64,000 bases of DNA, from assembly GCA_965113315.1 (NCBI GenBank), contig OZ220371.1. One strand, 5' to 3'. Every line of letters begins with the position of its first letter. Positions within the stretch are counted from its first letter, which is position 1. Shown here one piece after another: positions 4,378-59,442 of the stretch. The position numbers and the translations under genes are program-made. Below the pieces are notes generated by a model. It was given only the letters and a program-made list of their open reading frames with translations, searched no databases and had not been told where the DNA came from. Source of the stretch: Podarcis vaucheri. Its lineage: Eukaryota.

Positions 4378-4419
4378 TAGAGCTGAATATGATCATACTC
4401 ATCATACATCATACATCAT

Positions 4420-9048: not shown

Positions 9049-9727
9049 TTATTATTTATACCCCGCCCATCTGGCTGGGCTTCCCCAGCCACTCTGGGTG
9101 GCTTCCAAAAGAATATTAAAATACTATAATACATCAAATATTAAAAGCTTCCCGAAACAGGGCTGCTTTCAGATGTCTTCTAAAAGCCTGGTAGTTGTTG
9201 TTCTCTTTGACATCTGGTGGGAGGGTGTTCCACAGGGAAGGTGCCACTACCGAGAAGGCCCTCTGCCTGGTTCCCTGTAACTTGGCTTCTCGCAGTGAGG
9301 GAACCGCCAGAAGGCCCTCGGTGCTGGACCTCAGTGTCTGGGTAGAACGATGGGGGTGGAGACGCTCCTTCAGATATACTGGACCAAGGCCGTTTAGGGC
9401 TTTAAAGGTCAGCACCAACACTTTGAATTGTGCTCGGAAACGTACTGGGAGCCAATGTAGGTCTTTCAAGACCGGTGTTATGTGGTCTCTGCGGCCGCTC
9501 CCAGTCACCAGTCTAGTTGCCGCGTTCTGGATTAGTTGTAGTTTCCGGGTCACCTTCAAAGGTAGCCCAACGTAGAGCGCATTGCAGTAATCCAAGCGGG
9601 AGATAACCAGAGCATGCACCACTCTGGTGAGGCAGTCCGCAGGCAGATAGGGTCTCAGCCTGCGTACCAGATGGAGCTGGTAAACAGCTGCCCTGGACAC
9701 AGATTTGACCTGTGCCTCCATGGACCT
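8993..9727 (-). mobile_element. Young L2 LINE 3' fragment with (TTA)n tail
   Basis: Open peptide SRLDYCNALYVGLP...LHWLPVRFRAQFKVLVLTFKALNGLGP; 3' stem-loop UTR; (AAT)n at 8993-9048. Confidence 0.93.
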
Positions 9728-10216
9728 GCTTCCTGTTTTGTAGACCTTTTTCCACCTGGCTTGGGAAGGGAGGACCCAAACAAACACTTGGGATACAGTA
9801 TTCTTTGGAGGTTTTTTGGTGGGTTGCTGTTGCTGTTATTGATAGTAATCTTTTCTATCTTGTTAAAAAGATCTTATTATGATTTATGAGGAAACTGTTT
9901 CAATTTGATTGTGCACTTTATTGTGCACTTTTTGACATTTTATTTATTGTTTATGACTACTTTTGTAGTCATACCCAATTGAATTCAGTATGCCTAAATC
10001 ACTATGAGTTAGGCATGTGTAGGATTGTGCTGTAAAGTGTGTTAAATTGAAATCCATGTTAGATGATATTGAATTAGTACGTACCCTGAACATCTCAAAA
10101 GGTACATGTAAGACTATTCTTTCTCTAATCAACAGCTCTTAGCTGAATAGTTCAAATATCATTAAGTAGGGATCTTTCCAGTCTGCATCTGTACTGGAAT
10201 TGTTCTTCCAGCATTT

Positions 10217-11171: not shown

Positions 11172-12432
11172 TTTTTTTTAATGATATTTATTAAAGTTTA
11201 ACAATTACCCAAAAAAAGCAGGCAGTGATAAAAAAGAAAAAAAGATTACAATACTTCAAATATAAAAGAAAAATACAATACTAAGAAAAAAAAGAAAAAA
11301 GAAAACGCAAAAACAGTACAACAAAGCAATAAGAGTGAAAAAACAAAAATATTTAAAAACACTAACATCCAGTATTTTCATATCTTTATCTTTCATTTAC
11401 TTGTTTCCTTGACTTCCTCACACCTCCCTTTTTGTCTTCTAGTTCAATAAGCAAGTCCTTTCCCTCTTTCTCAAACTTTGTTCCATAATTTATCTTGACA
11501 CAATTTAACCTTAAATTTTACACTTTGACCCATTAACAATCTATTTTTACTTAATTCTTTATAACCTTTCTGCTAAAACCATGTAAATTCATTCCAGCAC
11601 CTTTCTAACATTCATTAATTTTACAATGTTTTTGTAAATATACTTTAAATTTTTTCCAATCTTCTTCCACCGACTCTTCTCCCTGGTCTCAGATTCTGCC
11701 AGTCATTTCCGCCATTTCCATGTAGTCCATCAGTTTCATCTGCCATTCTTCCCTGGTGGGTAGATCTTGCATCTTCCAGTATTTTGCAATAAGTATTCTT
11801 GCTGCTGTTGTGGCATACATAAAAAAGTTCTCTCTTTCCTTGGCACCAATTGGCCAACCATGCCCAAAAGCAAGGCCTCTGGTTTCTTCAGAAAGGTATA
11901 TTTGAATACCTTTTTCATTTCATTATAGATCATCTCCCAGAATGCCTTAATCTTTGGGCATGTCCACCAAAGGTGAAAGAAAGTACCTTCAGTCTCCTTA
12001 CATTTCCAACATTTATTATCAGGCAAATGGTAAATTTTTGCAAGCTTGACTGGTGTTATGTACCACCTATAGATCATTTTCATTAAGTTCTCTTTTAAGG
12101 CATTACATGCCGTAAATTTCATACCAGTGGTCCATAATTGTTCCCAGTCAGCCATCATAATATTATGTCCAACATCTTGTGCCCATTTAATCATAGCAGA
12201 TTTCACCGTTTCATCTTGAGTATTCCATTTCAACAGCAAGTTATACATTCTTGACAGATTCTTAACTTTAGAGTCTAGCAGTTCTGTTTCCAATTTTGAT
12301 TTTTCCACTTGGAAGCCTATTTTTTTGTCCAAATTATATGCCTCCATTATTTGATAATAATGGAGCCAGTCTCGCACTCTATTTTTTAATTTTTCAAAAC
12401 TCTGCAATTTTAGTCTGTCTCCCTCTTGTTCC
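11172..12432 (-). mobile_element. L1-clade LINE 3' fragment inserted into CR1
   Basis: Peptide KMIYRWYITPVKLAKIY...CWKCKETEGTFFHLWWTCPKIKAFW (C-terminal zinc knuckle); AATAAA and A-tail at the left end; 17-bp TSD ACTGGGTGGACAYCTTC at 11155-11171 and 12433-12449. Confidence 0.9.
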
Positions 12433-12449
12433 ACTGGGTGGACATCTTC

Positions 12450-12910
12450 ATCAAGCTGTTCCTTGCCTGATACTGTCTGTTCAGACCCCATGTATGTATG
12501 TGTGGAATTTTTTTTTTTGCGCTGACATGGAACGATTTACAGTTTACATTTGATATTTTACTTCCCTTCCACTCAGTTTGAAGAGGTCCTATTTGAGGTC
12601 TTCACAATCTCTTTGTTTTCGCAGTCTTGAACAATTTAGTATCATCAGCAAGCTTGGCCACCTCACTGCTCACTGCTAACACTAGATCATTTAAGAACAA
12701 GTTAAAAAGCACAAGTGCCAATACCAGTCCTTGGGGAACTCCACTTTCTACAGCTCTCTGTTCACATAACTACCAATTTATTCCTACTCTCTGTTTTCTG
12801 CTACATAACCAATTCCTGTTCCACAAGAGGACCTCTCCTCTTATTCCATGACTGATAAGTCTTTGGTGAGGTACGTTGTTGAAAGCTTTTTGAAAGTCCA
12901 AGTACATAAA
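12450..12910 (-). mobile_element. Old CR1 RT fragment
   Basis: Minus-strand translation GVPQGLVLALVLFNLFLNDL...LADDTKL. Confidence 0.8.
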
Positions 12911-15900: not shown

Positions 15901-15956
15901 AGATGGGTAACATGACCGCTATTACAGGTGTGTTGTTAGATAAATCTCTCCCTGTA

Positions 15957-17092
15957 CAGTGGTACCCCGCAAGACGAACGCCTCGCAAGACGGAAAACCC
16001 GCTAGACGAAAGGGTTTTCCGTTTTGGAGGCGCTTCGCAAAACGAATTTCCCTATGGGCTTGCTTCGCAAGACGAGCTTCGGGAAGTCCAGCGGGGGGCC
16101 AAGGGATTCCCTCCCAGCCGCCCGCATTTAAAAGCACTCTGGGCAAAGCAGCGAAGTGCGCTGCTTTCCCCGGGGTGCTTTTAAATGCGGGCGGCTGGGA
16201 GGGAATCCCTTGGCCCCCCGCTGGACTTCAAAAGAGCTTCGGGAAGTCCAGCGGGGGGCCAAGGGATTCCCTCCCAGCCGCCCGCCTTTAGAAGCGCTCG
16301 GGGGAACACCTGCCCCCGCCGCCCCACTTCGGAAAGCTGTTCCGAAGTGGGGAGGGGGGGCGGGAACACCTGGCCCCGCCGCCCCACTTCGGAAAGCTCT
16401 TTCGAAGTGGGGCGGGGGGCGGGGACACCTGGCCCCGCCGCCCCACTTCGGAAAGCTCTTCCGAAGTGGGGAGGGGGGGGCGGGGACACCTGGCCCCGCC
16501 GCCCCACTTCGGAAAGCTCTTCCGAAGTGGGGAGGGGGGGCGGGGACACCTGGCCCCGCCGTCCCACTTCGGAAAGCTGTTCCGAAGTGGGGCGGGGGGG
16601 CGGGGACACCCGGCCCCGCCGCCCCACTTCGGAAAGCTGTTCCGAAGTGGGGAGGGGGGGCGGGAACACCTGGCCCCGCGGGAACACCTTCTGAAGGCGG
16701 GCAGGGGGCGAAAGTCTTTGTCCCCCCTGCCTGCCTTCCCAGGGGCTTTTAAATCGCCCCGGACAGCGGAGAAGTCCTCCGCTGTCCGGAGCGATTTTAA
16801 AATGCCGCCTGCCAGCATTTTAAGATAGCCCCGCACAGCGGAGAAGTCCTCCGCTGTCCCAGGGTTTTTTAAAATGCTGGGGGTGGGAAGAAAAGCCCTT
16901 GTCCCCCCCCCAGCCTTCAGAAGAGGTCCGGGGACAGACTGTCCCCGGACCTGGCCTGAAGGTGGTTTCCCTAGGAACGCATTAATTGATTTTCAATGCA
17001 TTCCTATGGGAAACTGTGCATCGCAAGACGAAAAAACCGCAAGACGAAGAGAATTGCGGAACGAATTAATTTCGTCTTGCGAGGCACCACTG
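15957..17092. mobile_element. Tc1/mariner (Tigger/pogo-like) non-autonomous element carrying an internal minisatellite
   Basis: TIRs CAGTGGTACCCCGCAAGACGAA / TTCGTCTTGCGAGGCACCACTG; TA duplication at 15955-15956 and 17093-17094. Confidence 0.9.
16302..16690. repeat. GC-rich ~60-bp palindromic minisatellite, about 6 units
   Basis: Unit core CCCCACTTCGGAA-AGCTS-TTCCGAAGTGGGG followed by G-runs, repeated at ~60-bp period. Confidence 0.93.
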
Positions 17093-17489
17093 TATTCCCA
17101 CAGCAGAGGTCTTCAATTAACTGTTTGTGGTGGCTTTTATATTTAACAGCAGCAAGGTAATTGGATGAAGAGGAACTTGTGACCACTTAACCTTTGCCCA
17201 GAGGATCTAAGTAAGAATCAGGCAGTTGTAGAACAAAACTAGAACTTTAGTTTATTACACTCAATGAGGTTATAGCTTGCTGGTTTCTGTTTAAGGGCAC
17301 AATACTTTGTTTCAAACAAATACTCTTTACAGAGATATATACAATCTTTCTTAACTTCATGCACAGCTCCCATTTTTTACACTAAAACTGCTGCTGTTTT
17401 TTGTTTGTTTTAATCCTAGAATCCTAGGTGTGCAATTTAGTAATCTGTAGCACCTGGGAGGGGCTTATTCAGCCTGTAATCTCCATATT

Positions 17490-17947
17490 TGTATAGTTAA
17501 AGCCATGGTTTTTCCAGTAGTGATGTATGGAAGTGAGAGCTGGACCATCAAGAAGGCTGATCACCGAAGAATTGATGCTTTTGAATTATGGTGCTGGAGG
17601 AGACTCTTGAGAGTCCCATGGACCGCAAGAAGATCAAACGCATCCATTCTTAAGGAAATTAGCCCTGAGTGCTCACTGGAAGGACAGATCCTGAAGCTGA
17701 GGCTCCAATACTTTGGCCACCTCATGAGAAGAGAAGACTCCCTGGAAAAGACCCTGATGTTGGGAAAGATGGAGGGCACAAGGAGAAGGGGACGACAGAG
17801 GACGAGATGGTTGGAGAGTGTTCTTGAAGCTACAAACATGAGTCTGACCAAACTGCGGGAGGCAGTGGAAGACAGGAGTGCCTGGCGTGTTCTGGTCCAT
17901 GGGGTCACGAAGAGTCGGACACGACTAAATGACTAAACAACAATAAC
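17490..17947 (+). mobile_element. RTE-BovB LINE 3' fragment
   Basis: Peptide MVFPVVMYGSESWTIKKADHRRIDAFELWCWRRLLRVPWTARRSN...GVTKSRTRLND; (CAA)n tail; 12-bp TSD AATCTCCATATT. Confidence 0.95.
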
Positions 17948-23093: not shown

Positions 23094-24292
23094 AAAGCGT
23101 GTTCTCCTTCATGGAGAGCACATGTTGCGGTGCGGTCTAACAAGACACCTCATTGTTGCTGGGCGGGGAAAAGTAGTTGGCCACCTTTGCGATTGGGTTC
23201 CTCTTGTCGTTGGGGAAAATTTGATGTTGCCATTTTCTGATTGACAGCCAAGAAGGCTTTATTCCCTGCATGCAGCATCGAGCTTCCTCTTTTCGCTGTG
23301 CGCATCGGATCACCCTCCCACCCTCCCTATATTTAGGGTTGTTTGCATTGACCTTGCTGTGCCTGTCATGGGGTCATCTACTTTTGGAGCAGAGGCCCGG
23401 TAGGAATTTTGTCCATTTGGCTGATTGGCTGGTGCCATTTGGTTTTGGCCTAAAGGTAAAGGTAAAGGTACCCCTGCCCGAACGGGCCAGTCTTGACAGA
23501 CTGTGGGGTTTGTGCGCCCATCTCACATTTATTGGCCGGGGGCCAGCGCTGTCCGGGGACACTTCCGGGTCACGTGGCCAGCGTGACATCGCTGCTCTGG
23601 CGAGCCAGAGCCGCACACGGAACGCCGTTTACCTTCCCGCTGGTAAGCGGTACCTATTTATCTACTTGCACCCGGGGGTGCTTTCGAACTGCTAGATGGG
23701 CAGGCGCTGGGACCGAACAGCGGGAGCGCACCCCGCCGCGGGGATTCGAACCGCCGACCTTTCGATCGGCAAGCCCTAGGCGCTGAGGCTTTAGCCCACA
23801 GCGCCACCCGCGTCCCTTGGTTTTGGCCTATTGCGTAGCAAATCATCACAACTTGTAAGGTTGCAGTTAGGCATTGGTTTTATGAATTGGTTGGTGGAGG
23901 GGGGGGCATGAATTGGCTGTGCCTGCCCCTCCAATGCTGCTGCTGCAAGAGCATTCCGTTAAAGAAATCCAGGTGCTCACCATGCTTTTGTCTGAACCCC
24001 TATCAAGGGGCTAGGGCCACGCAAGAGCCCCTGGGAGCATTTGGGGAGAGGTGAGGGCATGGTACCCAGCTCCATCTTTCCCCCCAAAATGTTTTCCCTT
24101 TCTGACTTTGCATGCATGCGAATGTCACTCTGTCCCTGTGCATGGTCAGATAGTTGCAACCAATGCCTAAGCAACCACTCACATTTTTTGAATTTTAATA
24201 AAGTTGTGGCCAAAATTATGCCAAAAACCTTAAACAAAAATTCTGTGTAAATTGTGTTTTATTGGGGTGACTTGGGGACCTCGACACGCAAA
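23094..24292 (+). mobile_element. Solo A-spacer-B unit of a diverged Ngaro subfamily, interrupted by a Sauria SINE
   Basis: Starts AAAGCGTGTTCTCC like repeat A; central part aligns to the 28941-29115 spacer; ends AATAAAGTTGTGGCC...GACACGCAAA like repeat B; no ORFs. Confidence 0.88.
23453..23816 (-). mobile_element. Sauria SINE, full length, inserted into the Ngaro solo unit
   Basis: Minus strand begins GGGACGCGGGTGGCGCTGTGG and ends (ACCTTT)n; 14-bp TSD TTGGTTTTGGCCTA at 23439-23452 and 23817-23830. Confidence 0.95.
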
Positions 24293-24364: not shown

Positions 24365-24440
24365 GGATTTGGACCACCGACCTTCCGATCGGCAAGCCCA
24401 AGAGGCTCAGTGGTTTAGACCACAGTGCCACCCGTGTCCC
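24365..24440 (-). mobile_element. Sauria SINE 5' fragment
   Basis: Similar to 23745-23816 (CCGACCTTCCGATCGGCAAGCCC...GCCACCCGTGTCCC). Confidence 0.75.
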
Positions 24441-28488: not shown

Positions 28489-28940
28489 TTTGCGTGTTGA
28501 GTCCCACAGTTGCCACCCCCCAAATAATTCACACTTCACACATCAATTTTTGTTTGGGTTTTTGGCATAATTTTTTGGCCACAACTTTATTCAATACAAA
28601 ATATGTGAGTGGTTGCTTAGGCACTGGTTATGACTATCTGTCCACGCCCTCAGGGACAGTGCTGGCATTCCGGACACCAGCGGAAGCCAGAGGCATTCCG
28701 GACACCAGCGGAAGCCTTAGTGGGAAACAAGTATTGGGTGAGAAAATGAAGCTGGGCAACAGTCCCTCACTTCTCACCCTCATGTTCCTTTGGGGCTTGC
28801 ACGGCCCAAGTCCGATGCCAGGGACAAGGACGAAAAGAATGGCAAGCCCCTGGATTCCTTTAACGGAATTCCCTTCGCATCATTTGGAGGGGTAGGCACT
28901 TACCCCTCCAAGAACCACCTTAACCAGTGCCTAACCGCCA
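28489..28940 (-). repeat. Ngaro split direct repeat B2 (3' terminus)
   Basis: Copy of B1; ends ...AACACGCAAA on the minus strand; minus-strand AATAAA at 28586-28591. Confidence 0.95.
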
Positions 28941-29115
28941 ACCTTACAAGTTGTGACGATTTGCTACGCAGTAGGCAAAAACCAAATGGCACCAGCCAAT
29001 CAGCCAGATGGCAAAATTCCTACTGTGCCCCCGCACCAAGGCAGACGACACCATGACAGGCATAGCAAGGTCAAGCGCTCAGGAAAAACCCCCCGTTAAA
29101 GGGAGGGAGGGCGGG

Positions 29116-29336
29116 TGATCCGAAGCAAACGGCCAAGAGGAAGTCCAACCCCTGGCTCCCTATATTTATAGACTCTAACTCCTCCCCTGAATTTAGCAAC
29201 ATACAAAACTCCCCAGCAACCCAATATTAGCCTTTTAACAGGCTTGGGGTTTTTCCTCACAACTGCCTAAATCATGGCAAGGTGGCATGTTTCCCCAACC
29301 GCAACCCGTGCTCTCTGGTTAGGGAGAACACGCTTT
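29116..29336 (-). repeat. Ngaro split direct repeat A2
   Basis: Copy of 35906-36126 (offset 6790); abuts B1 through a shared TTT. Confidence 0.95.
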
Positions 29337-29785
29337 GCGTGTTGAGTCCCACAGTTGCCACCCCCCAAATAATTCACACTTCACACATCAATTTTTGTTT
29401 GGGTTTTTGGCATAATTTTTTGGCCACAACTTTATTCAATACAAAATATGTGAGTGGTTGCTTAGGCACTGGTTATGACTATCTGTCCACGCCCTCAGGG
29501 ACAGTGCTGGCATTCCGGACACCAGCGGAAGCCAGAGGCATTCCGGACACCAGCGGAAGCCTTAGTGGGAAACAAGTATTGGGTGAGAAAATGAAGCTGG
29601 GCAACAGTCCCTCACTTCTCACCCTCATGTTCCTTTGGGGCTTGCACGGCCCAAGTCCGATGCCAGGGACAAGGACGAAAAGAATGGCAAGCCCCTGGAT
29701 TCCTTTAACGGAATTCCCTTCGCATCATTTGGAGGGGTAGGCACTTACCCCTCCAAGAACCACCTTAACCAGTGCCTAACCGCCA
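29334..29785 (-). repeat. Ngaro split direct repeat B1 (452 bp)
   Basis: Identical by eye to 28489-28940 (offset 845); minus-strand AATAAA at 29431-29436. Confidence 0.95.
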
Positions 29786-29813
29786 TGGAGCCATAAGCTC
29801 ACCGCCAAACCAC

Positions 29814-30388
29814 TCACAGCCCCAGCCAAGCCTTTAGCTTGGCCACCACTGCACCTAGCCAAGCCTCGTTCCCAGAGGCAGAAAGGTGCACCCCATCAGC
29901 CCTAAAAAGGGGCGCAGCTTGAAACAGAATCAAAGGATGGGAAATCACATCACCATCCAACTCAAAAATCCTCTTAGCCACCGCAGAATTGATGCGTTTT
30001 CTGGCCCTTTCTGTGGCTGCGGGGCAACGGCTGCCCACCCAACTGCGGCGTTGCAGTAACTTAGACCAGAATATTTTAGCCGACGGCACCAATGTTCGCA
30101 GCATCTCCAAGTCACTCAAAATTGCAGCACGAAGTGAGAGACAGTCCACGGATACCAGGTCGTTCTCACCCAGCTGTACCACAATAGCCGTGGGCGGCCC
30201 TTCCAAGAGCAGCTGCCTCCGAATCCTTGGCAGAAACTCTGACCAGCGCATTCCCCGCCTGGACACCCACGACAGCTGAACATGTGGAGGGAAGCCGAGA
30301 CCTGGACCCAGCCTAGACTGCCTTGCTGCGACTCCAGCCCAATGGATGATGCTGTGCCCCACCAACCATATGCGAACAGCCGCCAGAC
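29814..30388 (-). CDS. ORF4, SGNH/GDSL-type hydrolase (esterase) domain
   Basis: Block I IWLVGHS (Ser nucleophile), block II RRGMR, block III QLGENDL, block V DGVHLS. Catalytic Ser/Asp/His intact. Domain starts immediately after a polypyrimidine-CAG acceptor at 30390-30389. Confidence 0.88.
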
Positions 30389-30429
30389 CTGAGATAAACA
30401 AAAACAAACAGTATAAGAATCCAACAGTG

Positions 30430-31400
30430 TTAACGAACATAGCCCCGAAAGGCATCCGACTTCCAGCGCCCCAAATCCTTTATCCTAGCGGCCGACAAGC
30501 CCCAATGAGCAGCCATTGTTGCGGCCCCAATCCTGAAGGAGTGAGGGGCGAAACCATCCGACGTGCCGTCACAAGCGATAATCGCTTTACGCATCACCTG
30601 TGCAAACTGGTGTCTCGTCAGGGGCGACCCATTTTCATGTCTAAGCAAAGGCCCATCACCCGTGACGCGTACTGCTAAGTACTTACTAACATCCTTTACA
30701 GGGCAAGGGCCTGCTTCTCCCGTAGCAGGGAGACGAATGACGGCGCCCCTACCTTTCTGATCAGTCTTAGAATTTCTGACTGTGATCCTCAATTCTGCGG
30801 GGGTTAGCTGCACGTCCTTGAGCAAAAGGCCCCTGGAACGGCCATCCCTGTTGTTCTCCAAAACCAGCTCACCCACTCTCAGAGCTCCAAAAAAGGCAAT
30901 AGAAAAGGCAGCCGAAAAAAGGCGAGCCTCATACCCTGACCAGCATACCTCCCGCAGCCTCTTGCGCATCCTGCTCAACAAATCAAAGGAAATGGGGCAC
31001 CGTGAGGCTGGCTGGGACGGACGAAGTCTGCCCCAGCCTTCCAGGGCCCTGCGCACTATATGCTTCGCACAAGGGTCCTTATCATAAAATGTCTTACAGA
31101 AAAATGTTATGGCAGCCGCCTGTATCTTAATAGTTCTCGCTGCCCGCCCCAACTGAAATAAATGCGCCAAATACTTCAGCACCTGCGAGGAGGCGGGGGG
31201 AACACCCTCTAAATTAGAGGTTGTCCTGCGCATAAACGTCAAAAAATCAGTCCAAGCCTTTGTGTAAGACCTAAGGGTAGAAGGAGAAACCGAAGCCGCT
31301 ACTCCCTGCAAAACTAATTGCTGCCAAGGTTCCAGAGATGATCCGGGAAATATTCCGGACGAATCCGTGCCTCTGGAACCAGGAGTCTGAACCGCTCCAT
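30430..31400 (-). CDS. ORF3, tyrosine recombinase; no N-terminal ATG (ORF track starts it at TTG 31311; frame open from about 31419)
   Basis: Catalytic set R (ALRVGEL), K (SKTDQ), HxxR (HSFRIGAAT), W (LGRWKS) and Y (FRGYVR); N-terminal STLRSYTKAWTDF helix. Start placed at an inferred splice acceptor. Confidence 0.93.
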
Positions 31401-32906
31401 CTGAAAACGGGACAGAGCATCAGCAATATCGTTAGACACCCCAGGAATAAAACGTGCAGAAAACACTATATTATGACGTAGACAATGCAACACGAAGGCC
31501 TGCAATAAGGCCGACACCCTGGGAGAGCGTGATGACAGTTTTGCCAGCACGTTCACCACCGCCTGATTATCAGTCCAGAAGCAGACACGACGGTTCCTGA
31601 ATTCCTCGACCCACAAATGCACCGCCACTGCAATGGGAAAAAACTCGAGAAATGTTAGATCCCGTGTGATTCCTCCACCCTGCCACTCAGGCGGCCAACG
31701 CTCTGCACACCACCGTCCCTTCCAGTAAAGACCAAAACCCAGGGAACCCGCAGCATCTGATTGCACCTGGAAATCATTTTGCAAGTTTAGCGTATCTTGC
31801 CATAATGACACCCCATTGAATTCCTCCAGGAATTCCAGCCATATGGAAAGATCAGCCTTCACCTCCTTAGATAGGCGCACCCTATGATGAGGGGCCCTCA
31901 ACCCCACAGTAAGGCGAGCCAGGCGCGAACAGAAAGGGCGTCCAGGTGCCACCACCCTGCACGCGAAATTCAGATGCCCCAACAACGACTGCAGTTGTAA
32001 AAGAGATACTTTCTTCAACGGGAGGAGATCCTCTATGACCTTCTTCAAGGCTACTAGTTTGTCCATCGGCAAACTAGAGGTCTGGGCCACCGTATCCAAC
32101 AGGATACCCAAATATATAAGTCGGGTAGAAGGACCCTCGGTCTTTTCCGAAGCAAGCGGAACTCCCAGCTCCTGCGTAAGGTCAGCAAAGGCCTGCAGCA
32201 GCACCGAGCACTCACCAGTATCGTGGGCAGAGGCCAATAAAAAATCATCCAAATAATGCGTGACCCCGCCCAATCCTGTTTTAAATTTAAGGGCCCATTC
32301 TAGAAAGGTGCTAAATGATTCAAAAGCCGCGCAGGCTACTGAGCAACCCATAGGCATAGCCTTATCAAAGTAATACTTGCCCTCGAACTGAAAACCCAGT
32401 AGCCAAAAATCATCCGGATGAATTGGGAGAAGGCGAAATGCCGACTCAATGTCGCATTTTGCCAATAGAGCAGCGGGGCCGAACCTCCTAATCATCTTGA
32501 TCGCCTGATCAAGAGATGCATACTTCACAGAGCAAAGCTCTGGGGGGATGACATCATTAACTGAAGAACCCCTGGGATGTGACAAATTATGAATCAAACG
32601 AAATTCACCTGGAGCCTTCTTTGGGACAATACCCAATGGGGATACATGCAAATTATGAAAGGGAGGGGCATCAAAAGGCCCGGCCATCCGACGCATGGCC
32701 AGCTCCTTTGCAATCTTTCTGCGAGCGACGTCAGGTTGCTCACGAATCGATTTTTGGTTTGACGGATTCCGTGCCACGGGAGGCATGGCTACCGGAATCC
32801 GGAAACCAACAGAAAAACCATCCCTCAAATAATCTGCAGCAGCTCTGTCAGGATAAGACTGCAACCAAAGTTGCAGGGCCGGCAACCGCACCGGGGTATG
32901 AGCCAT
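31314..32906 (-). CDS. ORF2, reverse transcriptase / RNase H (530 aa from ATG at 32906; frame open back to 33146)
   Basis: RT motifs SPLGIVPKK, FRLIHNLS, KCDIESAFRLLP, MPMGC, HYLDDF and YLGI. RNase H motifs SDAAG, LEFFPI, TDNQAV and NDIADALSR, typical of DIRS/Ngaro pol. Confidence 0.95.
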   Translation of the reverse strand: MAHTPVRLPALQLWLQSYPDRAAADYLRDGFSVGFRIPVAMPPVARNPSNQKSIREQPDVARRKIAKELAMRRMAGPFDAPPFHNLHVSPLGIVPKKAPGEFRLIHNLSHPRGSSVNDVIPPELCSVKYASLDQAIKMIRRFGPAALLAKCDIESAFRLLPIHPDDFWLLGFQFEGKYYFDKAMPMGCSVACAAFESFSTFLEWALKFKTGLGGVTHYLDDFLLASAHDTGECSVLLQAFADLTQELGVPLASEKTEGPSTRLIYLGILLDTVAQTSSLPMDKLVALKKVIEDLLPLKKVSLLQLQSLLGHLNFACRVVAPGRPFCSRLARLTVGLRAPHHRVRLSKEVKADLSIWLEFLEEFNGVSLWQDTLNLQNDFQVQSDAAGSLGFGLYWKGRWCAERWPPEWQGGGITRDLTFLEFFPIAVAVHLWVEEFRNRRVCFWTDNQAVVNVLAKLSSRSPRVSALLQAFVLHCLRHNIVFSARFIPGVSNDIADALSRFQMERFRLLVPEARIRPEYFPDHLWNLGSN

Positions 32907-32919
32907 GACAGTCAAGAGC

Positions 32920-34443
32920 TCATTTTCCTGTACCTGGGGCAGGAGCGAGAGGGGTGTTTTGTTTGGGGGTTTGCTGAGAACCCCCTTTTCCGCCACGAAA
33001 GGGCCGCCGATTGCCAAAACAAGAGGAAGAGGGATGCGAACCACTGCATTTCTCGCAAATGTGGGCGTACCTGCACCCCTGTCGCTGACAAGAACCCTTA
33101 TTATAATCCCAGCATGGGAAACGGCGGCCAGTCCTAAAGGCCCCAATCTTCAACTTCTGCTGCTCCGTAGCCTTCTTGTCGATGAGCGGAGCCACATGGG
33201 TGGTCCACACATCGAGATCCTTACGATCCCATCGCGCTGAGGGAATCCTAGCGGCACGGCGCCTGAAGTTCTCATCATACTTTATCGCAGCTTTTTCACC
33301 AGCTTTGGTGAAAGCCGAGCGAACAATAGACAAGTAAACTATCAAATGAAGAGATCTCCGTGGGTAAGCCGCCACCACTACTCCAGCAAAGACCTGGAAA
33401 CAATCAAGCCAATGCTCGAAGGTCCTGTCCGCCGAGGGAGCGCCCTGGCGCTTCTTCGACGACTTCCCTCCCTCCTGGTCCTCAGAAGGAGGAGCCAATT
33501 TGAACATGTCCACAAAACGGCCGTTCAGAATCCTGGACCGCAGTCTTGTCGACAAATGCAAACCGGGGATAATGTCCCTCGCGGAATTGGTAGAGACTTT
33601 AACGTCAGGCACCAACGCGCCATCCCTACACTCTTGGACCGCCCCATACTTTGCACGGTGCGAGTTGGCCCTCCGATCCCAAGCCCACCGTGGCAGACCC
33701 GAGGCCGATTCTCCAAAACCCCAGTAAAGTTCCCTGGACTCGCCAGACTCATCGTCGGAGCTGGAGGATGACGTACCAGTATAAGAAGAAGATGATTCAC
33801 CCCTCCTTCGCTTGGCCCGTTTCCGAGAAGACCTTCTGCGGTGACGTTTTCCACCCGAAGACTTCCTGGCAGGAACTGGCAAGCTGTCTTCAATGGAGGA
33901 CTCGGAATCAGGGCTCAGCTGTGCTGCACCTAAAGCTGCTTGAGGAGACACAACAAGTGAAAGGCCGGAACCCGACGCCACCTCATCTGGAGATTGGACG
34001 TGCACACCTCGGCGGGCGGTAGCTGCCGAAATGTTTTGGTTCCCCGCAGCCCTCCTGGAGGAACGACGTGGCCTCCGTGAATGGCCACGAGGAGCAGGTA
34101 AGTCGCGGGGCTGGGTTAATTGAGAATCAGTCCTCAAACCCCTAGATGATCCATCTCTCCCCTCTTCACTAGATGACGGCGACACTGGGGACGACGCCAC
34201 CACGTGACGAGGACGCCTGCCAGACGTGGAAGGCTGAGCAGAGCAATGTTGAAGGAGGCCATCCATCTGGGCTGCGAAGCGAGACAAGGCCACTGGATCG
34301 CCGGCCATGCTTTCCACCAACGTTTGCACCCTTCCCGCCGGTTGACTCGGGGCGGGAGAGCGAAGCGCCTGTGATGGACCTCTAATAGGCCGTTTTGCAC
34401 CAGAAGCTGGGCTGGGATGAGCTGCAACCTTCTTAGGAGCCAT
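32920..34443 (-). CDS. ORF1, Gag-like nucleic-acid-binding protein (507 aa)
   Basis: ATG start; Ser/Arg-rich disordered N-half with a basic NLS-like tract (KRHRRRSSRKRAKRRR); C-terminal CWDYNKGSCQRQGCRYAH (CCCH) and CEKCSGSHPSSSC zinc knuckles; first ORF of the element. Confidence 0.88.
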   Translation of the reverse strand: MAPKKVAAHPSPASGAKRPIRGPSQALRSPAPSQPAGRVQTLVESMAGDPVALSRFAAQMDGLLQHCSAQPSTSGRRPRHVVASSPVSPSSSEEGRDGSSRGLRTDSQLTQPRDLPAPRGHSRRPRRSSRRAAGNQNISAATARRGVHVQSPDEVASGSGLSLVVSPQAALGAAQLSPDSESSIEDSLPVPARKSSGGKRHRRRSSRKRAKRRRGESSSSYTGTSSSSSDDESGESRELYWGFGESASGLPRWAWDRRANSHRAKYGAVQECRDGALVPDVKVSTNSARDIIPGLHLSTRLRSRILNGRFVDMFKLAPPSEDQEGGKSSKKRQGAPSADRTFEHWLDCFQVFAGVVVAAYPRRSLHLIVYLSIVRSAFTKAGEKAAIKYDENFRRRAARIPSARWDRKDLDVWTTHVAPLIDKKATEQQKLKIGAFRTGRRFPCWDYNKGSCQRQGCRYAHICEKCSGSHPSSSCFGNRRPFRGGKGGSQQTPKQNTPLAPAPGTGK

Positions 34444-34849
34444 GCCTGCTATGTAGAATCAAATGAGAATTAACAACTGCCGCAGGCCGGCGTCACTGCC
34501 GTACACCAACAATGAATTCCACAGGAATACAATAAGGCTGTGAAATGCTATAGCTAAACAAAATAATTACTATAGCAAAGAGTGTACTAAATCCAAAGGC
34601 GAACTATGTTATCTATCTATCTATCTATCTATCCAACCGAATTATATATTTATATAAGTATAAATGTACTATTTACTTATTCACGTATTCAATTATTATT
34701 ATTATTATTATTACTTTAAGAATTTAATATTTATTAATAATCAATTTTTTAATTATTTATCGAGTCAATGTACCTTACAATGAACGGTGTTTAAAACAGC
34801 AAAATTAATTGCACTCCCCACTTTTTCCAGCAGGGGGCAACCTGCCAGA

Positions 34850-35660
34850 CCGAGCTAGCACAACCAGTGCAGCGCTGCGTTGAGCCACAAGGGGGAGCTC
34901 CAGGCTGACAAGCTAGCTGCAACGCACAAATCGTCCAGGAGGGGGAGGCAGTCTAAAGGAACTGCTGCCAGCAAAAAATTCTCCTCCCGTGGCGGCGCGC
35001 CGCTAGCGGCAATAGACAGGCGGGCAGGGGCGCAGGCCGCGGTTCCCGACAACGGGGAAGCGGTCCCGACGTTTTCGCACAGGAGACAGGGGGAAGCCGC
35101 GAATAAAGAGGCCCGGCCCCCAGTACCGATCGCGCCGGCTCGGCGGCGGTAGCGCCGCCCGGGCCGAGCGCCCTCCCCACACGGCCTCCACTCACACCCC
35201 GCGCGGCCTGCAGGGACGGGCAAGATCCGCCTCCAAGCGGCGCCTCCCGAACCTCTGTAGGCCGAAAAGGCCCCTGATGCCGCCGGGGCTGGACGCAGGC
35301 CCCGCTCTCCGGCGCCTCCACGTGCCGCGCGGCCCACAAGGACACCCTCCCCACGGGCCTTACAAGCGGCTGAAACAGACTCCTTCCCTCCGCGGCGCTT
35401 GGAAGCCGCGAGAAGGTACAAAGTAGATGGGGGGGAAGGGGAGGTGGGGGGGTTCCGGAGCTCCGCGGGACCACTGCTAGGCCCGCGCGGCTCGTGAGAG
35501 ATGGGGGGGATGAAGTGGGATGGTGGGGAGGGAATATTGTTTTAAAAACCGGGCCCTGGCGGCAGCGGGCAGTCGGCTGCGGTCGCCCCGAAATTCGGTG
35601 GAAAACCGCTATGCCTAGCCCCAAGGCAGGGCCCGGCAGGCCGGGGGGGGGAACCCACCC
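34850..35660. promoter_or_regulatory. CpG-island-like GC-rich 5' leader of the Ngaro element
   Basis: Dense CpG and very high GC compared with CpG-depleted flanking DNA; lies between A1 and gag. Confidence 0.55.
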
Positions 35661-35905
35661 TCTAGCCTTGTCTATAAGCCCCTTCCTTTTCTTTTATTGT
35701 TTAAACTAAGAAGGGGCCCGAAGCGAGAAGAGAGGAATATAATTAAAAGGAAGATGGGGGGAGGGAAGAACGGGGGGGGGGTTGATGGGAGGGAATTAAG
35801 TAGATAAAGGGGAATTAAGGAGGAAAGGACGATTGCAACAGCAAACTAACTAGGCCCGGTAAAACCGAAAGTAGCAAAACAGTACAACCGTCTCAACGCA
35901 GCTCC

Positions 35906-36126
35906 TGATCCGAAGCAAACGGCCAAGAGGAAGTCCAACCCCTGGCTCCCTATATTTATAGACTCTAACTCCTCCCCTGAATTTAGCAACATACAAAACT
36001 CCCCAGCAACCCAATATTAGCCTTTTAACAGGCTTGGGGTTTTTCCTCACAACTGCCTAAATCATGGCAAGGTGGCATGTTTCCCCAACCGCAACCCGTG
36101 CTCTCTGGTTAGGGAGAACACGCTTT
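35906..36126 (-). repeat. Ngaro split direct repeat A1 (5' terminus, 221 bp)
   Basis: Identical by eye to 29116-29336; begins AAAGCGTGTTCTCCC on the minus strand. Confidence 0.95.
35925..35960 (-). promoter_or_regulatory. Putative TATA box and pyrimidine initiator in repeat A1 (duplicated in A2 at 29135-29170)
   Basis: Minus-strand TATAAATATA at 35960-35951, followed by CTTCCTCTT about 27-35 nt from the TATA start. The CTTCCTCTT motif is retained in the diverged solo unit near 23283. Confidence 0.5.
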
Positions 36127-46373: not shown

Positions 46374-48369
46374 CCTGTTCTGTAAGAATTCATAGATGTT
46401 TCAGACATGAGGGAGTAGCTATAATGAATGGTAGATGACCAGTTGTAGCGTCTTAATAGTTAAGCTCCTTGGAGATACACGTAGAAAGAATAACTCCCGG
46501 AAGTAAACAAATAAAACGAAACCACCACACTGCTTTTGAAGGTATAGTGCACTTTTGGGGCTGGCTAACGGGTAACATTCTTTTAAGAGAAGGTGTCTAT
46601 GAACCATATGTGTACTGACAACTGTGTAAAATACTACCTTCGGAACATTATTGATTTTGGATTATCGTACTAGAAAATTAAAGGGTACTTTTAATTCTTC
46701 CAACATGCCAAGATGTCAAGAACCCTACTTGATGGCAGAGATTTTGAAGTTTTCAGATATTTGGAAGAATTATTATTCAGGAGTGTGTAGGTCCCAGGGC
46801 AATTGTTAACAGGGTTAGGTCAACTCTTCCTGCTCTTTGTTGTTGTTCTTCTAACAACACTTTACAGAAAAGGCATGGGTTTAATATTTTATGAGTGTGC
46901 TATGTAATAGTCCAGGGCCTAGGCCAAGATTTGCTGCTATACCAGTGTCTTTCTACAATAACATTTCTTAAGCAGGAGTACAAGCAGAAAACTCTTTTCA
47001 TCTAATTGAGATCTAGGCAGTTAGGCACTACATTTCATGGGAAGGTAAATTTTAATGACTTGCACAAGGCCTGAAGTGGTCACTTCACACAGCATGACTT
47101 GTACAATCCATTGATAAGGACGGTATTTTCAATGCTCTAAGGATTTCCACTGGACTAAATTTTTGTTCTCAAGCTGTTCTGCTTATGTGTTTCTCTGAGA
47201 TGTCATCATGAAGAGACATAAATGCACCATTGCCAGTAGGAATGATGGTGTTCAGGTTTATTTTTCTGTCTTAGGTGTCCCCAGGGAAGCAATTTCTGCT
47301 TTGATTAGGTGTCTGCTTGATGTCCAGTTTCAGGCACTTGAAAATGTCCTGTAGTTAAATTCTAAGGAAACAGAGATTATTTTAGTTGACCCCCGCTGCC
47401 TTCTGAATGACATCCTAGCCTTTGCAGCTCCTTTTGATGATTGAATTGTAGAGTTTCCTATTGGATTTGGGACTGTTGGATTGTTTACAGTGCTGAATTT
47501 GTTGTATGATTATTTTTTTTTGCAGCTGCATTTGTCCCAGACATTATAAGATTAATATCAAAGGTTCAAAAACTAATTCAAAACAAAACAACAACAACAT
47601 TACACTATATTCAACTAATATTGGATGCCAAGGTAAGCTTGAGTAAACATATATATTTCTAACAGTTTCTAACTACAGTAGGTACCTGTTGAATCTCAGA
47701 GCTTGTCATATCGTTCCCCGGGCTGCAGGTCACTGTGTACAAGGTCCTCCCCCAAGTTGCAGCCTGCACCATAACTAATAGGACTGTCTGCAAACATCTT
47801 AATTGGTGGACAAGTCTATAATAGGAGAAGGTGTTCTTTTAGACAATCTGGTCCTAAGTTGTTTATGGCTTTATAACAAAACCTTAAACTTTGCTTGGCA
47901 GCATAGGAGTGGCTAGTGCTTTTCCTTTAACAGATGCTATATGCAGGTGGTAGAATGATAACAAGTTTAATTAATTAATTAATTATTATTATTATTATTA
48001 TTATTATTAATAATAATAGGAGTAGGACTGTAGATGTAAAACTGCTGTTAAGGCTAGTTCAGAAGATGCATCTGGTGCAAAATCCCATGTCTATTATTTT
48101 TAATTAAACTTGTTAGTCACTTACTATCCAAAGGTCAAAAAGAATCTCAATTTCCAGTGTCATTTTTCTAGAAAAAGAAGTGTGTAATGTATTCACCAGT
48201 ATTCTTTTCAGAATATACCTAGAAAGCAACTTGCTATCTGTCTGGGCGAACATAGGAATGGACCGTGCCGCTTTTAAATGTGATTGCTCATAATGTTGTT
48301 CTGTTCAGTTTCTGCATTAATTGCATTTTTTAAATCCAATTGAAAATTGACACTTAAATATGTATATAA

Positions 48370-48775
48370 GCGGTATCAGGCCTTGGGCGGAATCCTTTTG
48401 TCCATCTTCCTCTTGCGGCGGCGATACCAGGGTTCCCCATTAAAGGGGTTTTCTGAAGGGAGGCTTTGGCCGTACACCGAAAGGTCGTCATTGCTCCCTC
48501 CTGCGGTGGCGGCGTTACGGGGGCGGCCATCTCTGCTTGAACATATGTTCTCCAGAGCCGGCCCATCCCCCCCCCACACACTGGATAACCCTGATGCTCC
48601 CTAGGTCCCCGGCTGGGGACCGGGGAGGGAGAACGCCCAATGCCTGAGCCAAGGTCTACCCACATTTGAAATTTAATAAAGTTGTGGCCAATTTAATCCC
48701 ATAGCACGTTGTCTTGAGTCGTTATTCACATGACGGGGGGACCGTGCAGGATCTGGGGACTCCACCTGTCCACGC
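48370..48775 (+). mobile_element. Isolated Ngaro B-type repeat flanked by a 78-bp direct duplication
   Basis: Begins GCGGTATCAGGCCTTGGGCGGAAT (cf. B start GCAGTTTAGGCCTTGGGCAGAAT of the 56.9-kb relic); contains AATAAAGTTGTGGCC; ends CCACGC|AA. Flanks 48292-48369 and 48776-48853 differ at 2 positions. Confidence 0.75.
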
Positions 48776-50660
48776 AATGTTGTTCTGTTCAGTTTCTGCA
48801 TTAATTGCATTTTTTTAATCCAAATGAAAATTGACACTTAAATATGTATATAAATACACATTTCTGCATTTATTTTCTGTCAATACATGCATTTTAGAAG
48901 CATCTTGATAAGTTCAAACTGCTGAGAAATGCATTGCAACATTTGGAGAAGTTCAAGCTATCTTTCAGTTTGCACTTTTAAGTTGAGCGATGCTGATCAG
49001 TCAAGCCAGGTTGTATCCAAATTTGGAAAGCTTGAACTCCTCAAGCCTCTGTAGGTAAACAATGACATCTGCATTGTTCACCAATGCCTGCTATGGGATG
49101 TTTTACTTAAGCCTTTCCTGTAATGTTGTTTAATAACATGTCCCTTGCCTATGACTTAAGACACACTGCTGTCCAGCTATTCTCGCCTGGCTCCCTCATT
49201 CCACATTTAATGAGATTGACTGCAGATGCAATCGAGAATTTATAATGAGCTCTGTGAATAATATAAATGAAGTAGCCAATGGCAGTTGTCCTGCTATTTC
49301 TAAATAGCTTTCCCAGGGATCCTCCTTGAAAAAAATTATATTCTTTAATAATTGAAAACAGGATAGCTAGAGCACTTATTACCTTTATTAATGCCTTTAT
49401 GAGATAAAAACAGATTTGTTTCAAGTCATTTCCACTTTCTGTAGCCCTCACATTAAGACCAACATGGTTATGGAATCCTGAGCATAAAAGTGTACAATCA
49501 ATTATGATGCTATAATTAATTAAAATGTAAGAGTTAAGCTGAACTTCTATGATCCTTAGTCGGATAGTATTTTAATAAGGATAAATATAGGCAGTATTAT
49601 CTTATTAATTTGTCAATGAAACCAGTTTTGCATGGATAACAGCTTTGCTAGGTGAATTTCATCAACAGTGTGTGTGTGTGTGTGTGTGCGCATGCGCATG
49701 TGTGTGTGTGTACATTCACAGTGAGGGGGAGAAACTTTAATGTGCAACATGCTGAATGTATCTATTAAGAGGCCATTGCCACAGCATGATCTTTCTGGTA
49801 TGGATTGATTCCTACAGAGACTTTTATGTAAATGGAGCAGAAAAAAGCACTCCAGGCCAACAATCTCATTTTTAAAAAGATTGTTTTACTTATAATTTTG
49901 AAAACCAATAAATAAACACACAAATAATAAGGAAAGCAACGCATGGAGGGCAACCATATGTAAATTTGTTTGGAAGTAGGTCCCTGTCTGGGATCAATGC
50001 GATTGTTTTCATGTTTCAGCCTAAATCAAAAGAAAAGAAACTTGCATCTGACGTCACATAAACATATCCTTATTATACCACTGACCATATGTCACTATGC
50101 AGTGCATCACATTGCCACATGGATTTTATTTGCTTAAGAGTGTTGGGTTGCAGGTCACAACTTGTCAAACTCTGACAATCGTTTACAGTGCAAGCAAACC
50201 TGTGCTGGAAAAACCCCCTCATAAAGTGTGAATGAGCCCTGTGGAGGTTATTAGAAGAAAAATAATAATATTTGTTTCTATATATTAAAGTTAGCTCTAA
50301 ACTGAAGTACAGCCACCCCCTGCCTCATGCTGGAGCCGCCATAGCAAAAGATTAATTTTTCAGGTTGAAACAATCCTTCCTGCGGCATGGCACAATGTGA
50401 TTATTCACAGTAAAATGCATTGTGAGAATGGCGACAAACCAGTGAACTGCTTGCCAACAAAGCCAACCTTTTGATCCCGATTCTATTCAAATCAGTTTTT
50501 TCCTGGCACACACAGGATACTGCAGCAATCTTGTGTTTTCTACCTGTCAAATGTTAAAACTGCTGTTGGGTGGTGCCAAGTTGCACAAATGCTTTTTCCT
50601 GTGCTTGGGTGAATTGGCCCTTGGCCGCTGGTCTCCAAGTATTAAATGGGAATAGTAGTA

Positions 50661-51023
50661 AAGGTAAAGGTAAAGGTACCCCTGCCCGTACGGGCCAGTC
50701 TTGCCAGACTCTAGGGTTGTGCGCCCATCTCACTCAAGAGGCCGGGGGCCAGCGCTGTCCGAAGACACTTCCGGGTCACGTGGCCAGCGTGACATCGCTG
50801 CTCTGGCGAACCAGAGCCGCACACGGAAACGCCGTTTACCTTCCCGCTTGTAAGTGGTCCCTATTTATCTACTTGCACCCGGGGGTGCTTTCGAACTGCT
50901 AGGTTGGCAGGCGCTGGGACCGAACGACGGGAGCGCACCCCGCCGCAGGGATTCGAACCGCCGACCTTTCGATCGGCAAGCCCTAGGCGCTGAGGCTTTT
51001 ACCCACAGCGCCACCTGCGTCCC
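50661..51023 (-). mobile_element. Sauria SINE, full length
   Basis: Closely similar to 23453-23816; 13-bp TSD GGGAATAGTAGTA at 50648-50660 and 51024-51036. Confidence 0.95.
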
Positions 51024-56450: not shown

Positions 56451-57720
56451 TTATGTGCCTAGCCACAGAGTTGCCCTGCCTGATGTGCCTGACAGCTAAA
56501 TGAGTAAATGAATGGACACAACAACTGTCCAGGATTTAAAATGGCCACAACTTTATTGATTTCAGATGTAGGAAGCCTTGGCATAGACACTGGGGATCCC
56601 TCTCAGCCCCATGCTGGGGAACTGAGGCATGACAGGGTCTATTCGGGGGTGAATCCATCGCAAAATGCAGGTTTACACGGATGGGCCCCAAACACTGAAG
56701 GAAGCTCTATGGCCCGGTAGCCCTATGCAATGGGCTCTTTGGACAGAGACTTCCCTCCAGACCCCACTAGCGGGGTATCCTGTTGTTGCTGCTGCAGAGA
56801 ACAGGGAGTGGGTGAGTCATTGCTTCACCGCACCCCAACTAGATGAAAGACTATAGAATTCTGCCCAAGGCCTAAACTGCCACTCGAGACTGCCTACAGC
56901 TGGAACCACTCATTCAGGTCTATTACCCAATGCTCATTCCCCAAAGGGGAGAAATGGACACCATCAGGGTGAAATAGCTCAGGCATATCAGACTTGATGT
57001 CCTGGTATCAAATTACAGACTCCCGAAGACATTGCAAGGCCCTGTTGATCTTCACAAGGGAATAGTTAAGGTGTGTTGGTCTCAGTGCACCACACCTCTG
57101 ACAATGTGGGAAGAGCTCTGACCAGAAGATGCTCATAGATGGATACTCAGACCGCAGTTGTTCTGGGTCGGCAATTGCCGCCAGAGTCAAGTCCGCACTT
57201 TTACGCTTGACGAGGTCATTCTTGCCCAGTTGGAGGATCAGGGCATCAGGTGGGCTGTGACTGGTGATAGCTCTTTGGAGTGTAGGCAGAAGCGCATTCT
57301 ACCACATGTCGCGCTGACCTATCCAGAAGAAGTTGGCCTTGCTAGAAAGGCCCAGATGCGCTCCCCAGCATGTACAGGTAGCGTGCACACTTGCCCAATG
57401 GATGATACTGTGGTCAAGGACCCAAACCTGTCTGCGGGTAGTACCTGAAAGATATTTAAGAGGACTGTGTAAGGGACTGATATCCTAGGCGGACATATGT
57501 ATGCTCTGTCCACTGTGGAACGCCAGTGGCCCATGGCCTTAATGCAATCAGGATCCAGGCCCCTGGCTGCTGTAGAAATCACAGCCCCAATACAGAATGA
57601 GTGGCCAGAGAAGTAAATGGGCACCAACACATGCTGTGATGACCTTCCTCAAGATGGCCTGGGCAAGGGTAGCCTGTTAGAATGTACTGTATGAGAAGGG
57701 CGCCACAGTGGTCCAGCTGT
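56451..57720 (-). mobile_element. Degenerate 5'-truncated Ngaro relic (YR C-terminus, SGNH pseudogene 56894-57444, B repeat)
   Basis: Minus-strand peptides FSGHSFCIGA...MGHWRS...AY (YR) and VWVLDHSIIHWA, SIFWSEL, PDGVHFS (SGNH); AATAAAGTTGTGGCC near 56542-56556. Boundaries approximate. Confidence 0.85.
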
Positions 57721-59128: not shown

Positions 59129-59202
59129 GGTTAATAGCTTTCCTGTTTATATGCTTCAAACTCACCAACATGGAAAAACAGAGGAAAACAACTATCCCTG
59201 TA

Positions 59203-59442
59203 CAGTGGTACCTTGGTTTAAGAACAGCTTAGTTTATGAACAACTTGGATTAAGGATGTTGCAAACTCGGAAGTGGTGTTTTGGTTTGTGAACATTGCCT
59301 TGGAAGAATAACATGTTCCACTTCCTACTGAGTGTAAATTGAGTCCCCCGCTGCGATGGGAAAGCACACCTTGATTTAAGAACGCTTTGGTTTAAGAACG
59401 GACTTCCAGAATGGATTAAGTTTGTAAACCAAGGTACCACTG
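59203..59442. mobile_element. Tc1/mariner MITE
   Basis: Perfect 18-bp TIR CAGTGGTACCTTGGTTTA; TA duplication at both ends. Confidence 0.9.

Follow-up and report, generated by a model that had tools for sequence, protein, structure and literature searches.

The closest described counterparts of the element reported here are the Ngaro retrotransposons of Xenopus, which encode a tyrosine recombinase (YR). In both Xenopus species they carry four overlapping open reading frames (ORFs; gag-like, reverse transcriptase/RNase H, YR, and SGNH hydrolase) in an A1...B1-A2-B2 arrangement of repeats. Their repeats are 100% identical, expressed sequence tags are known, potentially active copies are present, and a recent wave falls at <3.2 million years (Myr) (PMC9210276). 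We analyzed a 64,000-nucleotide window (the whole stretch of DNA considered; one strand of contig OZ220371.1, assembly GCA_965113315.1) from the lizard Podarcis vaucheri, which contains a 7,638-bp element of this type at 28489-36126 on the minus strand. The split repeats are 221/452 bp in the lizard versus 236/152 bp in Xenopus, a comparison by description and not by sequence. The available text of PMC9210276 mentions neither a splice scheme nor a Ngaro crossover site.

More distant systems share parts of this plan. Ngaro 1-4 of Cafeteria burkhardae have the same A1-ORFs-B1A2B2 order and leave solo AB units by repeat recombination, but they have three ORFs, no described SGNH domain, and a preference for virophage targets (PMC8547959). 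VIPER and SIRE of Trypanosoma cruzi have split direct repeats, and SIRE consists of A2, a short unique region, and B2, like a solo unit in our window; they differ in forming a separate clade limited to kinetoplastids and in ORF order (PMC6681497). DIRS-1 of Dictyostelium, for which a cell-based assay exists, resembles the lizard element in its reverse transcriptase (RT)/RNase H and YR, an internal copy of the end junction, and a shared end trinucleotide. However, DIRS-1 has inverted repeats with an internal complementary region (ICR) and a methyltransferase (PMC7192593), whereas the lizard element has direct split repeats and an esterase. The esterase of ORF1p in the ZfL2-1 long interspersed element (LINE; PDB 4c1b) shares the SGNH fold, the catalytic set, and a position behind an ORF1 N-terminal part. 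It belongs to a non-LTR element and is a one-frame fusion rather than a product of splicing; membrane binding and a low turnover are described for the LINE esterase (PMC3905857).

We consider the lizard locus to be a recently inserted, full-length Ngaro element of a squamate-resident lineage, with a cycle that we propose to involve splicing and AAA crossover; we put the probability of this reading at roughly 0.7. An earlier note on this DNA had described an intact, very recent four-ORF Ngaro in a lizard genome and offered it as a model for integration. The Ngaro identity and the lizard host stand, and the closest listed relatives mark the host as a lacertid. Its remark that YR retrotransposons are absent or fossil in mammals and birds agrees with PMC4350176 and PMC9004415. 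The 175-nt spacer, the AAA overlap of B1 and A2, the junction site, and the splice scheme are new relative to that note.

Architecture, proteins, and relatives

The element contains zero N and reads A1-ORF1-RT/RNaseH-YR-SGNH-B1-A2-spacer-B2 (Table 1). With repeat limits set by exact extension of matching sequence, A1 and A2 (221 nt) and B1 and B2 (452 nt) are each 100% identical, and together 0/670 sites differ, as the earlier note had judged by eye. B1 and A2 overlap by AAA. The repeat comparison of the element found no inverted terminal repeats, and the 64-kb window holds only one full copy. The B repeats hold an internal tandem duplication of ~24 nt (28666-28720 and 29511-29565) that the B part of the solo unit lacks. 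The leader has a CpG-island-like stretch (~34900-35550; GC 61-74%, observed/expected ratio [o/e] of CpG 0.6-1.1) and an AT-rich simple-sequence stretch near 34600-34760. GC-rich leader frames (34855-35541 and 34953-35693) and antisense frames gave no Pfam match and were taken as by-products.

Four uninterrupted stop-to-stop frames of 512, 611, 329, and 221 aa (ORF1, pol, YR, and SGNH) fill the coding region and overlap successively by 230, 106, and 50 nt. Counting along these frames, the catalytic residues are D233 and YLDD 299-302 (RT); D465, E502, D527, and D577 (RNase H); R181, K218, H293, R296, W319, and Y327 (YR); and S43, N106, D195, and H198 (SGNH). The open frames and catalytic residues reported earlier are thus all borne out. 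Pfam searches recovered a CCCH finger (weak), RVT_1, phage integrase plus a SAM-like domain (below cut-off), and GDSL lipase (below cut-off). None of the four frames matched a protease or DDE integrase family at E 0.01.

The N-terminal half of ORF1 (aa 1-222) is of low complexity (18% Ser, 17% Arg+Lys, 1% aromatic) and ends in a basic run. The C-terminal half has CCCH and CCHC-type zinc fingers and conserved Trp, Tyr, Cys, and His, and is predicted to form a helical domain plus zinc fingers (predicted local distance difference test score [pLDDT] 85). Whole ORF1 has 2,761 relatives at E 0.001, counted as cluster representatives. The C-half model had no match in the PDB at E 0.001; a wide fold search gave at best Z 5.4 with a root mean square deviation of 4.4 over 81 residues, which is background for helical models, and BFVD gave weak Gag rows only (best E 0.035, template modeling score 0.17). 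Searches with the predicted model establish neither a capsid fold nor a new fold. Because they gave no clear match, calling ORF1 "Gag-like" rests on its position and zinc fingers.

The first ATG of pol (32906) is not conserved among relatives. Pol stops 34 residues past the last RNase H Asp, and no methyltransferase follows. A profile built from 52 YR sequences recovers Cre at E 2e-12; the R, H-x-x-R, W, and Y residues line up. The SGNH model (pLDDT 91) matches SGNH hydrolases at E 8e-9, and block I reads GHS in nearly all relatives. 4c1b is the best PDB sequence match of the SGNH profile, not a significant one (E 0.26), and a Foldseek match at E 3e-7 among many SGNH hydrolases.

Relatives of pol were taken as the best 120 of 1,735 matches. 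The closest among these are Podarcis muralis (87-89%) and Zootoca vivipara, followed by Anolis, Eublepharis, Hemicordylus, Rhineura, a snake, and amphibians; YR and SGNH searches returned the same range. None of five exact translations (0/5) is present in the protein collection, where the best pol relative among the listed matches is 89% identical. Compared as proteins, the lacertid relatives (P. muralis, P. lilfordi, P. raffonei, Z. vivipara, and Lacerta agilis) reach 89% in pol and 88% in SGNH, show the same donor and acceptors in their gene models, and are annotated as uncharacterized or "xerD homolog." More widely, the annotations of many squamate and amphibian genomes treat Ngaro proteins as products of host genes, labeled "integrase/recombinase xerD homolog" or uncharacterized LOC. 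Two of the pol matches bear the name of a bacterial metagenome-assembled genome from bivalves, which is probably host contamination. Many fungal "DIRS" entries in Repbase are Ngaro (PMC3783388), so squamate families may also be filed as "DIRS."

A quick pol tree of 39 rows comprised the window pol and 38 named hits; it was built without unnamed rows, some named rows, named Ngaro/DIRS/PAT references, or an outgroup. In it, squamate rows form one clade (26 rows; approximate likelihood ratio support, SH-aLRT, 94), and the window pol nests among lacertid rows: three P. muralis rows form its sister group, and its end branch is short (0.047). Judged from these sequences, the lineage is long resident in squamates with a vertical history. 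Horizontal transfer is not indicated, as the tree broadly follows host groups (no formal test).

Candidate splice sites, junction, and a proposed cycle

The first ATG of the YR frame is residue 63, inside the SAM-like core-binding domain (residues 42-114), and the nearest named relative that covers the YR start also lacks an ATG ahead of this domain. ORF1 contains a candidate splice donor, with 33777 as the final base of the exon, that is in frame with a candidate acceptor for each of YR (31400) and SGNH (30388). The predicted products are 545 aa and 413 aa; a database protein of ORF1-N/SGNH make-up (P0281) has the predicted length, 413 aa.

Gene models from other genomes contain comparable joins. 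Among 23 SGNH proteins, six link ORF1, directly past the basic run and a serine tail, to the opening Gly of the domain. One joins ORF1 slightly further on, two join a YR donor to the same Gly, and two are other YR fusions; the remainder are nine single-frame predictions, two whose first residue is a Met right behind the Gly, and one fragment. In read-through SGNH relatives, Ser, Pro, or Leu precedes the Gly in 10/10 (the rows are related and are not 10 independent trials), behind a run with many Phe, Leu, Cys, Tyr, Val, and Ile residues. We read this combination as the signature of a pyrimidine tract plus YAG, not of a peptide. A remnant near 57.4 kb, 35% identical, has a tract and CAG/G in the same register, against a background of 42 such sites in 64,000 positions.

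For YR, 28 of 120 matches have a long N-terminal extension, including 11 lacertid models and 15 amphibian or mollusc models with low-complexity extensions. Seven of the 11 lacertid models join right after a basic run at the same Asp, three of these seven with ORF1 homology detectable by BLAST, and one Anolis and one gecko model also enter at this Asp. The same ORF1 donor is used toward both acceptors in gene models of several species. Together, these signs from sequence and gene models suggest that YR and SGNH are spliced from one ORF1 donor. We found neither this scheme nor squamate Ngaro elements in the searchable literature; Goodwin and Poulter 2004 or Poulter and Butler 2015 may report either.

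Splicing of ORF1-N to pol was considered and rejected: a join of this kind is present in one model (P0005), but an AG is missing from the corresponding place in the window. A strong acceptor occurs at 32933, 14 nt before the ORF1 stop, and would join ORF1-N to the last four ORF1 codons, 14 nt short of the pol ATG. A short upstream frame and the pol ATG, in good context, follow it, a possible route to pol translation.

Tyrosine recombinase sites are built arm-core-arm. A perfect 7-bp inverted pair around a 3-nt core occurs once in the 7,638 positions of the element, and that occurrence is on the B1/A2 junction. AAA is found at both ends of 2/2 full-ended units (the intact element and the solo unit), the window frequency of AAA being 3.3%, and the internal junction carries a single AAA. 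The shared AAA and the arms fit both this build and the trinucleotide crossover model described for DIRS (PMC7192593). The B1/A2 junction is likely the template of the circle junction and the crossover site of the recombinase. Two results weigh against this. As a DNA hairpin the junction region folds no better than shuffles (z -0.28); nor is the stability of the B end above shuffles, and the A start is borderline (z -1.9). In addition, PMC7192593 shows a predominantly linear, single-stranded cDNA for DIRS-1, so a free double-stranded circle is a possible rather than a given form of the substrate.

We propose the following cycle. Given the TATA-like box in A1, RNA polymerase II would probably start near the 3' end of A1 and stop after the AATAAA in B2, leaving an RNA without most of A1 and the end of B2. 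Unspliced RNA would yield ORF1 and, by some route, pol. As the sequence and gene models suggest, donor 33777 spliced to 31400 would give ORF1(1-222)-YR and, spliced to 30388, ORF1(1-222)-SGNH. With this shared donor, both enzymes would include the low-complexity, basic N-half of ORF1, which probably serves nuclear import or co-assembly in the ribonucleoprotein (RNP). If the published DIRS model is moved to split repeats, RT and RNase H would copy the RNA and use the internal B1-A2 segment to restore the ends that it lacks, resetting A1=A2 and B1=B2 and yielding a B-A junction. YR would then cross the AAA core of this junction, itself observed, with a genomic AAA, which would leave AAA at both ends and no other duplication. 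Later recombination of A1 with A2 would leave solo A-spacer-B units such as 23094-24292. By analogy with the esterase of LINE ORF1p, SGNH probably acts in membrane targeting of the RNP.

Age and competing explanations

The 0/670 count corresponds to a divergence of at most 0.22% per copy (95%), or an upper bound of ~1.1 Myr with a rate of 1.98e-9 per site and year, as applied to P. muralis in PMC8760935. This bound assumes that the repeats are reset each cycle and correctly assembled. For 4.6 kb of open frames a simple model gives a probability of ~0.005 that no frame is broken at 1% divergence. CpG o/e is 0.70 in the element and 0.72 in the ORFs versus 0.28 and 0.25 in the flanks, and TpG and CpA are not in excess (1.09 and 1.05). 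By these estimates the element is recent, under about 1.1 Myr; the earlier statements that its CpGs are not decayed and that it is very recent both hold.

Its intactness extends to the frames and catalytic residues, not to every near-invariant column. Compared with 44, 38, and 22 relatives, it departs from consensus at 4/355 such columns: 1/194 in pol (550), 2/78 in YR (120 and 284), and 1/83 in SGNH (175). Three departures are single G-to-A transitions, one of them at a CpG. If these arose after insertion, three single-step changes in ~760 non-synonymous sites amount to 0.4%, above the repeat-based estimate, a point that counts against so young an age; pooled with the repeats they give ~0.14% divergence, or ~0.7 Myr by our own arithmetic. 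Alternatively, the four departures may be subfamily changes, and they may or may not impair the element. It is a serious possibility, if the less probable one, that this copy is young but dead, having arrived or become defective, in a family that perhaps no longer moves. The departures are consistent with this, as are the three closest full pol relatives, which depart at only 0-1 such columns, and the lack of the exact proteins in the collection and of a near-identical relative among the listed matches. Yet there is no stop or frameshift in 4.6 kb and no repeat difference, the fourth departure needs two base changes and so points to a lineage-level change, YR and SGNH relatives commonly depart at 0-2 columns, and the host species is perhaps simply absent from the protein collection. 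From its sequence, the copy is a possible candidate for current activity. That the repeat identity reflects assembly polishing or gene conversion, with an older insertion behind it, is very improbable. In its favor, CpG o/e within A and B is only 0.41-0.43, but the signs of youth cited above are in unique sequence, and the older solo unit has decayed as expected (CpG o/e 0.23 in its B part). A PAT-like or DIRS-like identity is less credible still. PAT-like elements also have split direct repeats (PMC9210276), but by the definition in PMC7192593 the element does not qualify, with split direct repeats present and methyltransferase absent; it likewise lacks the inverted terminal repeats with ICR and the methyltransferase of DIRS-like elements. 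Instead, it shows the Ngaro combination of split direct repeats (A1-ORFs-B1-A2-B2), an RT/RNase H ORF2, an R-K-H-R-W-Y recombinase in its own frame behind pol, and no methyltransferase. The SGNH ORF behind YR is the amphibian type of Ngaro, as in Xenopus, whose proteins occur among the listed pol matches at 49-52%.

The splice scheme has its own competitor, in which YR and SGNH are made without splicing (by frameshift from pol, leaky scanning, re-initiation, or non-AUG starts) and the database joins are prediction artefacts. We consider this unlikely, although several observations lean toward it. All frames overlap by short distances, SGNH has an in-frame ATG (30455), and in several more distant YR relatives an ATG immediately precedes the core-binding domain, so YR could also be made by a route other than splicing. 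Some models use other joins: among the 11 lacertid YR models three join from pol and one reads through, and 5/11 spliced SGNH models join elsewhere. As predictions, the gene models could have been made ab initio or carried over from one another. In a crude weight-matrix scan with approximate values, the donor ranks only 9th of 460 GT, and the YR and SGNH acceptors 6th and 2nd of 450 AG. The YR acceptor also lies within conserved RNase H codons and so could be a coding by-product. On the other side, the SGNH ATG is not conserved, while residues ahead of the domain that do not align are nevertheless encoded by pyrimidine-rich codons with a YAG-compatible end in 10/10. The acceptor is retained at the DNA level in the 35%-identical remnant, and one donor serves two acceptors in several species. 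We therefore retain splicing from a shared ORF1 donor as the preferred explanation.

Table 1. Features of the Ngaro element and related pieces in the 64-kb window; pol, YR, and SGNH are given as stop-to-stop frames.
Feature	Positions	Strand	Remarks
Repeat A1, element 5' end	35906-36126	-	Starts with AAA; TATA-like box 35955-35960
5' leader, 1.46 kb	34444-35905	-	CpG-island-like and AT-rich stretches
ORF1, 507 aa from ATG	32920-34443	-	Stop-to-stop 32920-34458; Ser/Arg/Lys-rich N-half, predicted helical C-half
Candidate splice donor in ORF1	33770-33779	-	Exon would end at 33777 behind codon 222 (phase 1), directly past basic run; gene-model joins
pol, RT + RNase H	31314-33149	-	+1 frame relative to ORF1, 230-nt overlap
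Candidate YR acceptor	First exon base 31400	-	Within last RNase H codons
Tyrosine recombinase (core-binding + catalytic, Cre-like)	30430-31419	-	Own frame behind pol
Candidate SGNH acceptor	First exon base 30388	-	T-rich stretch behind the YR stop, ahead of the SGNH domain
SGNH hydrolase	29814-30479	-	Behind YR; in-frame ATG 30455
Repeat B1	29334-29785	-	AATAAA 29431-29436
B1/A2 junction	29327-29343	.	7-bp perfect inverted arms around AAA core
Repeat A2	29116-29336	-	221 nt
Spacer A2/B2, unique, 175 nt	28941-29115	-	Kept in solo unit of related family
Repeat B2, element 3' end	28489-28940	-	AATAAA 28586-28591; final AAA
Solo A-spacer-B, related older family	23094-24292	+	68% identity; AAA at both ends
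Solo B-like unit, distant family	48370-48775	+	Within 48292-48853; flanked by 78-nt direct repeat (97%)
Decayed Ngaro-type remnant	~56480-57741, lower limit approximate	-	YR C-terminus 33%, SGNH 35% with stops, B-like tail

Surroundings and implications

The window also holds three older pieces of Ngaro type (Table 1), which indicates that the family is old and common in this genome and that a young copy is to be expected. The solo A-spacer-B unit is 4.2 kb from the intact copy, in the opposite orientation. The solo B-like unit runs from the B start to an end like a crossover end and has no poly(A); one possible origin is a linear cDNA that inserted by one end, with repair completing the process. 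In the remnant, the first exon base behind the tract and CAG/G would be 57444. A 15-nt motif (AATAAA and the nine following bases) is found exactly at 24197, 28577, 29422, 48675, and 56543 and with one mismatch at 15161, against 0.01 expected in all; the 15161 site has no further similarity. The motif is invariant across four otherwise divergent B repeats, which also share the start of B, and on this pattern it may control cleavage or read-through at B1.

Other repeats surround these pieces. A tRNA-type short interspersed element (SINE) with an ACCTTT tail, presumably Sauria SINE, has three full copies in the window. One (23453-23816; CpG o/e 0.95, 13-nt target duplication) looks young and sits in the spacer of the solo unit; the others (4029-4378 and 50661-51023) are 93% identical to it, and a fragment lies at 24365-24440. 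A non-autonomous DNA transposon-like element at 15955-17094, which we take to be of Tc1/mariner type, has TA-bounded terminal inverted repeats of 24 nt and, internally, six copies of a 60-nt GC-rich palindromic minisatellite; a short element with similar ends is at 59200-59445. Long frames at 9134-9835 (-), 11736-12536 (-), and 17451-17936 (+) have no Pfam match at E 0.01 but resemble C-terminal pieces of LINE RT proteins (CR1/L2-, L1/Tx1-, and BovB-like). A host gene at the site was considered and rejected: a crude scan gave no convincing exon, 0/57 other frames reach the Pfam cut-off, and there is no Rfam match. The insertion site looks intergenic or deep intronic.

As a bare discovery, this further member of a known Ngaro kind adds little to the Xenopus case. 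Its proposed use as a new model element was overstated, because better model hosts already have such copies: potentially active ones are described in Xenopus (PMC9210276), and the cell assay exists for DIRS-1 (PMC7192593). The interest lies in how YR retrotransposons express overlapping frames and where the recombinase cuts. In the literature surveyed, experiments on these elements are confined to Dictyostelium DIRS-1. This locus offers exact, cheap tests in the form of two predicted splice junctions and a 17-bp candidate crossover site.

A wider proposal, which we hold tentatively and at somewhat less than even odds, is that vertebrate, or at least squamate, Ngaro elements use splicing like that of complex retroviruses and make YR and SGNH only as ORF1-N fusions. 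The C-half of ORF1 would be a helical zinc-finger protein, perhaps without a retroviral capsid fold, and YR would act on a minimal 17-bp arm-AAA-arm site. If this is true, a conserved donor at the border of the low-complexity half of ORF1 feeds both the recombinase and the esterase, a program undescribed so far. More broadly, a Ngaro clade has persisted over a long time in squamates and includes young full-length copies, whose proteins are listed in databases as uncharacterized or "xerD homolog" host genes.

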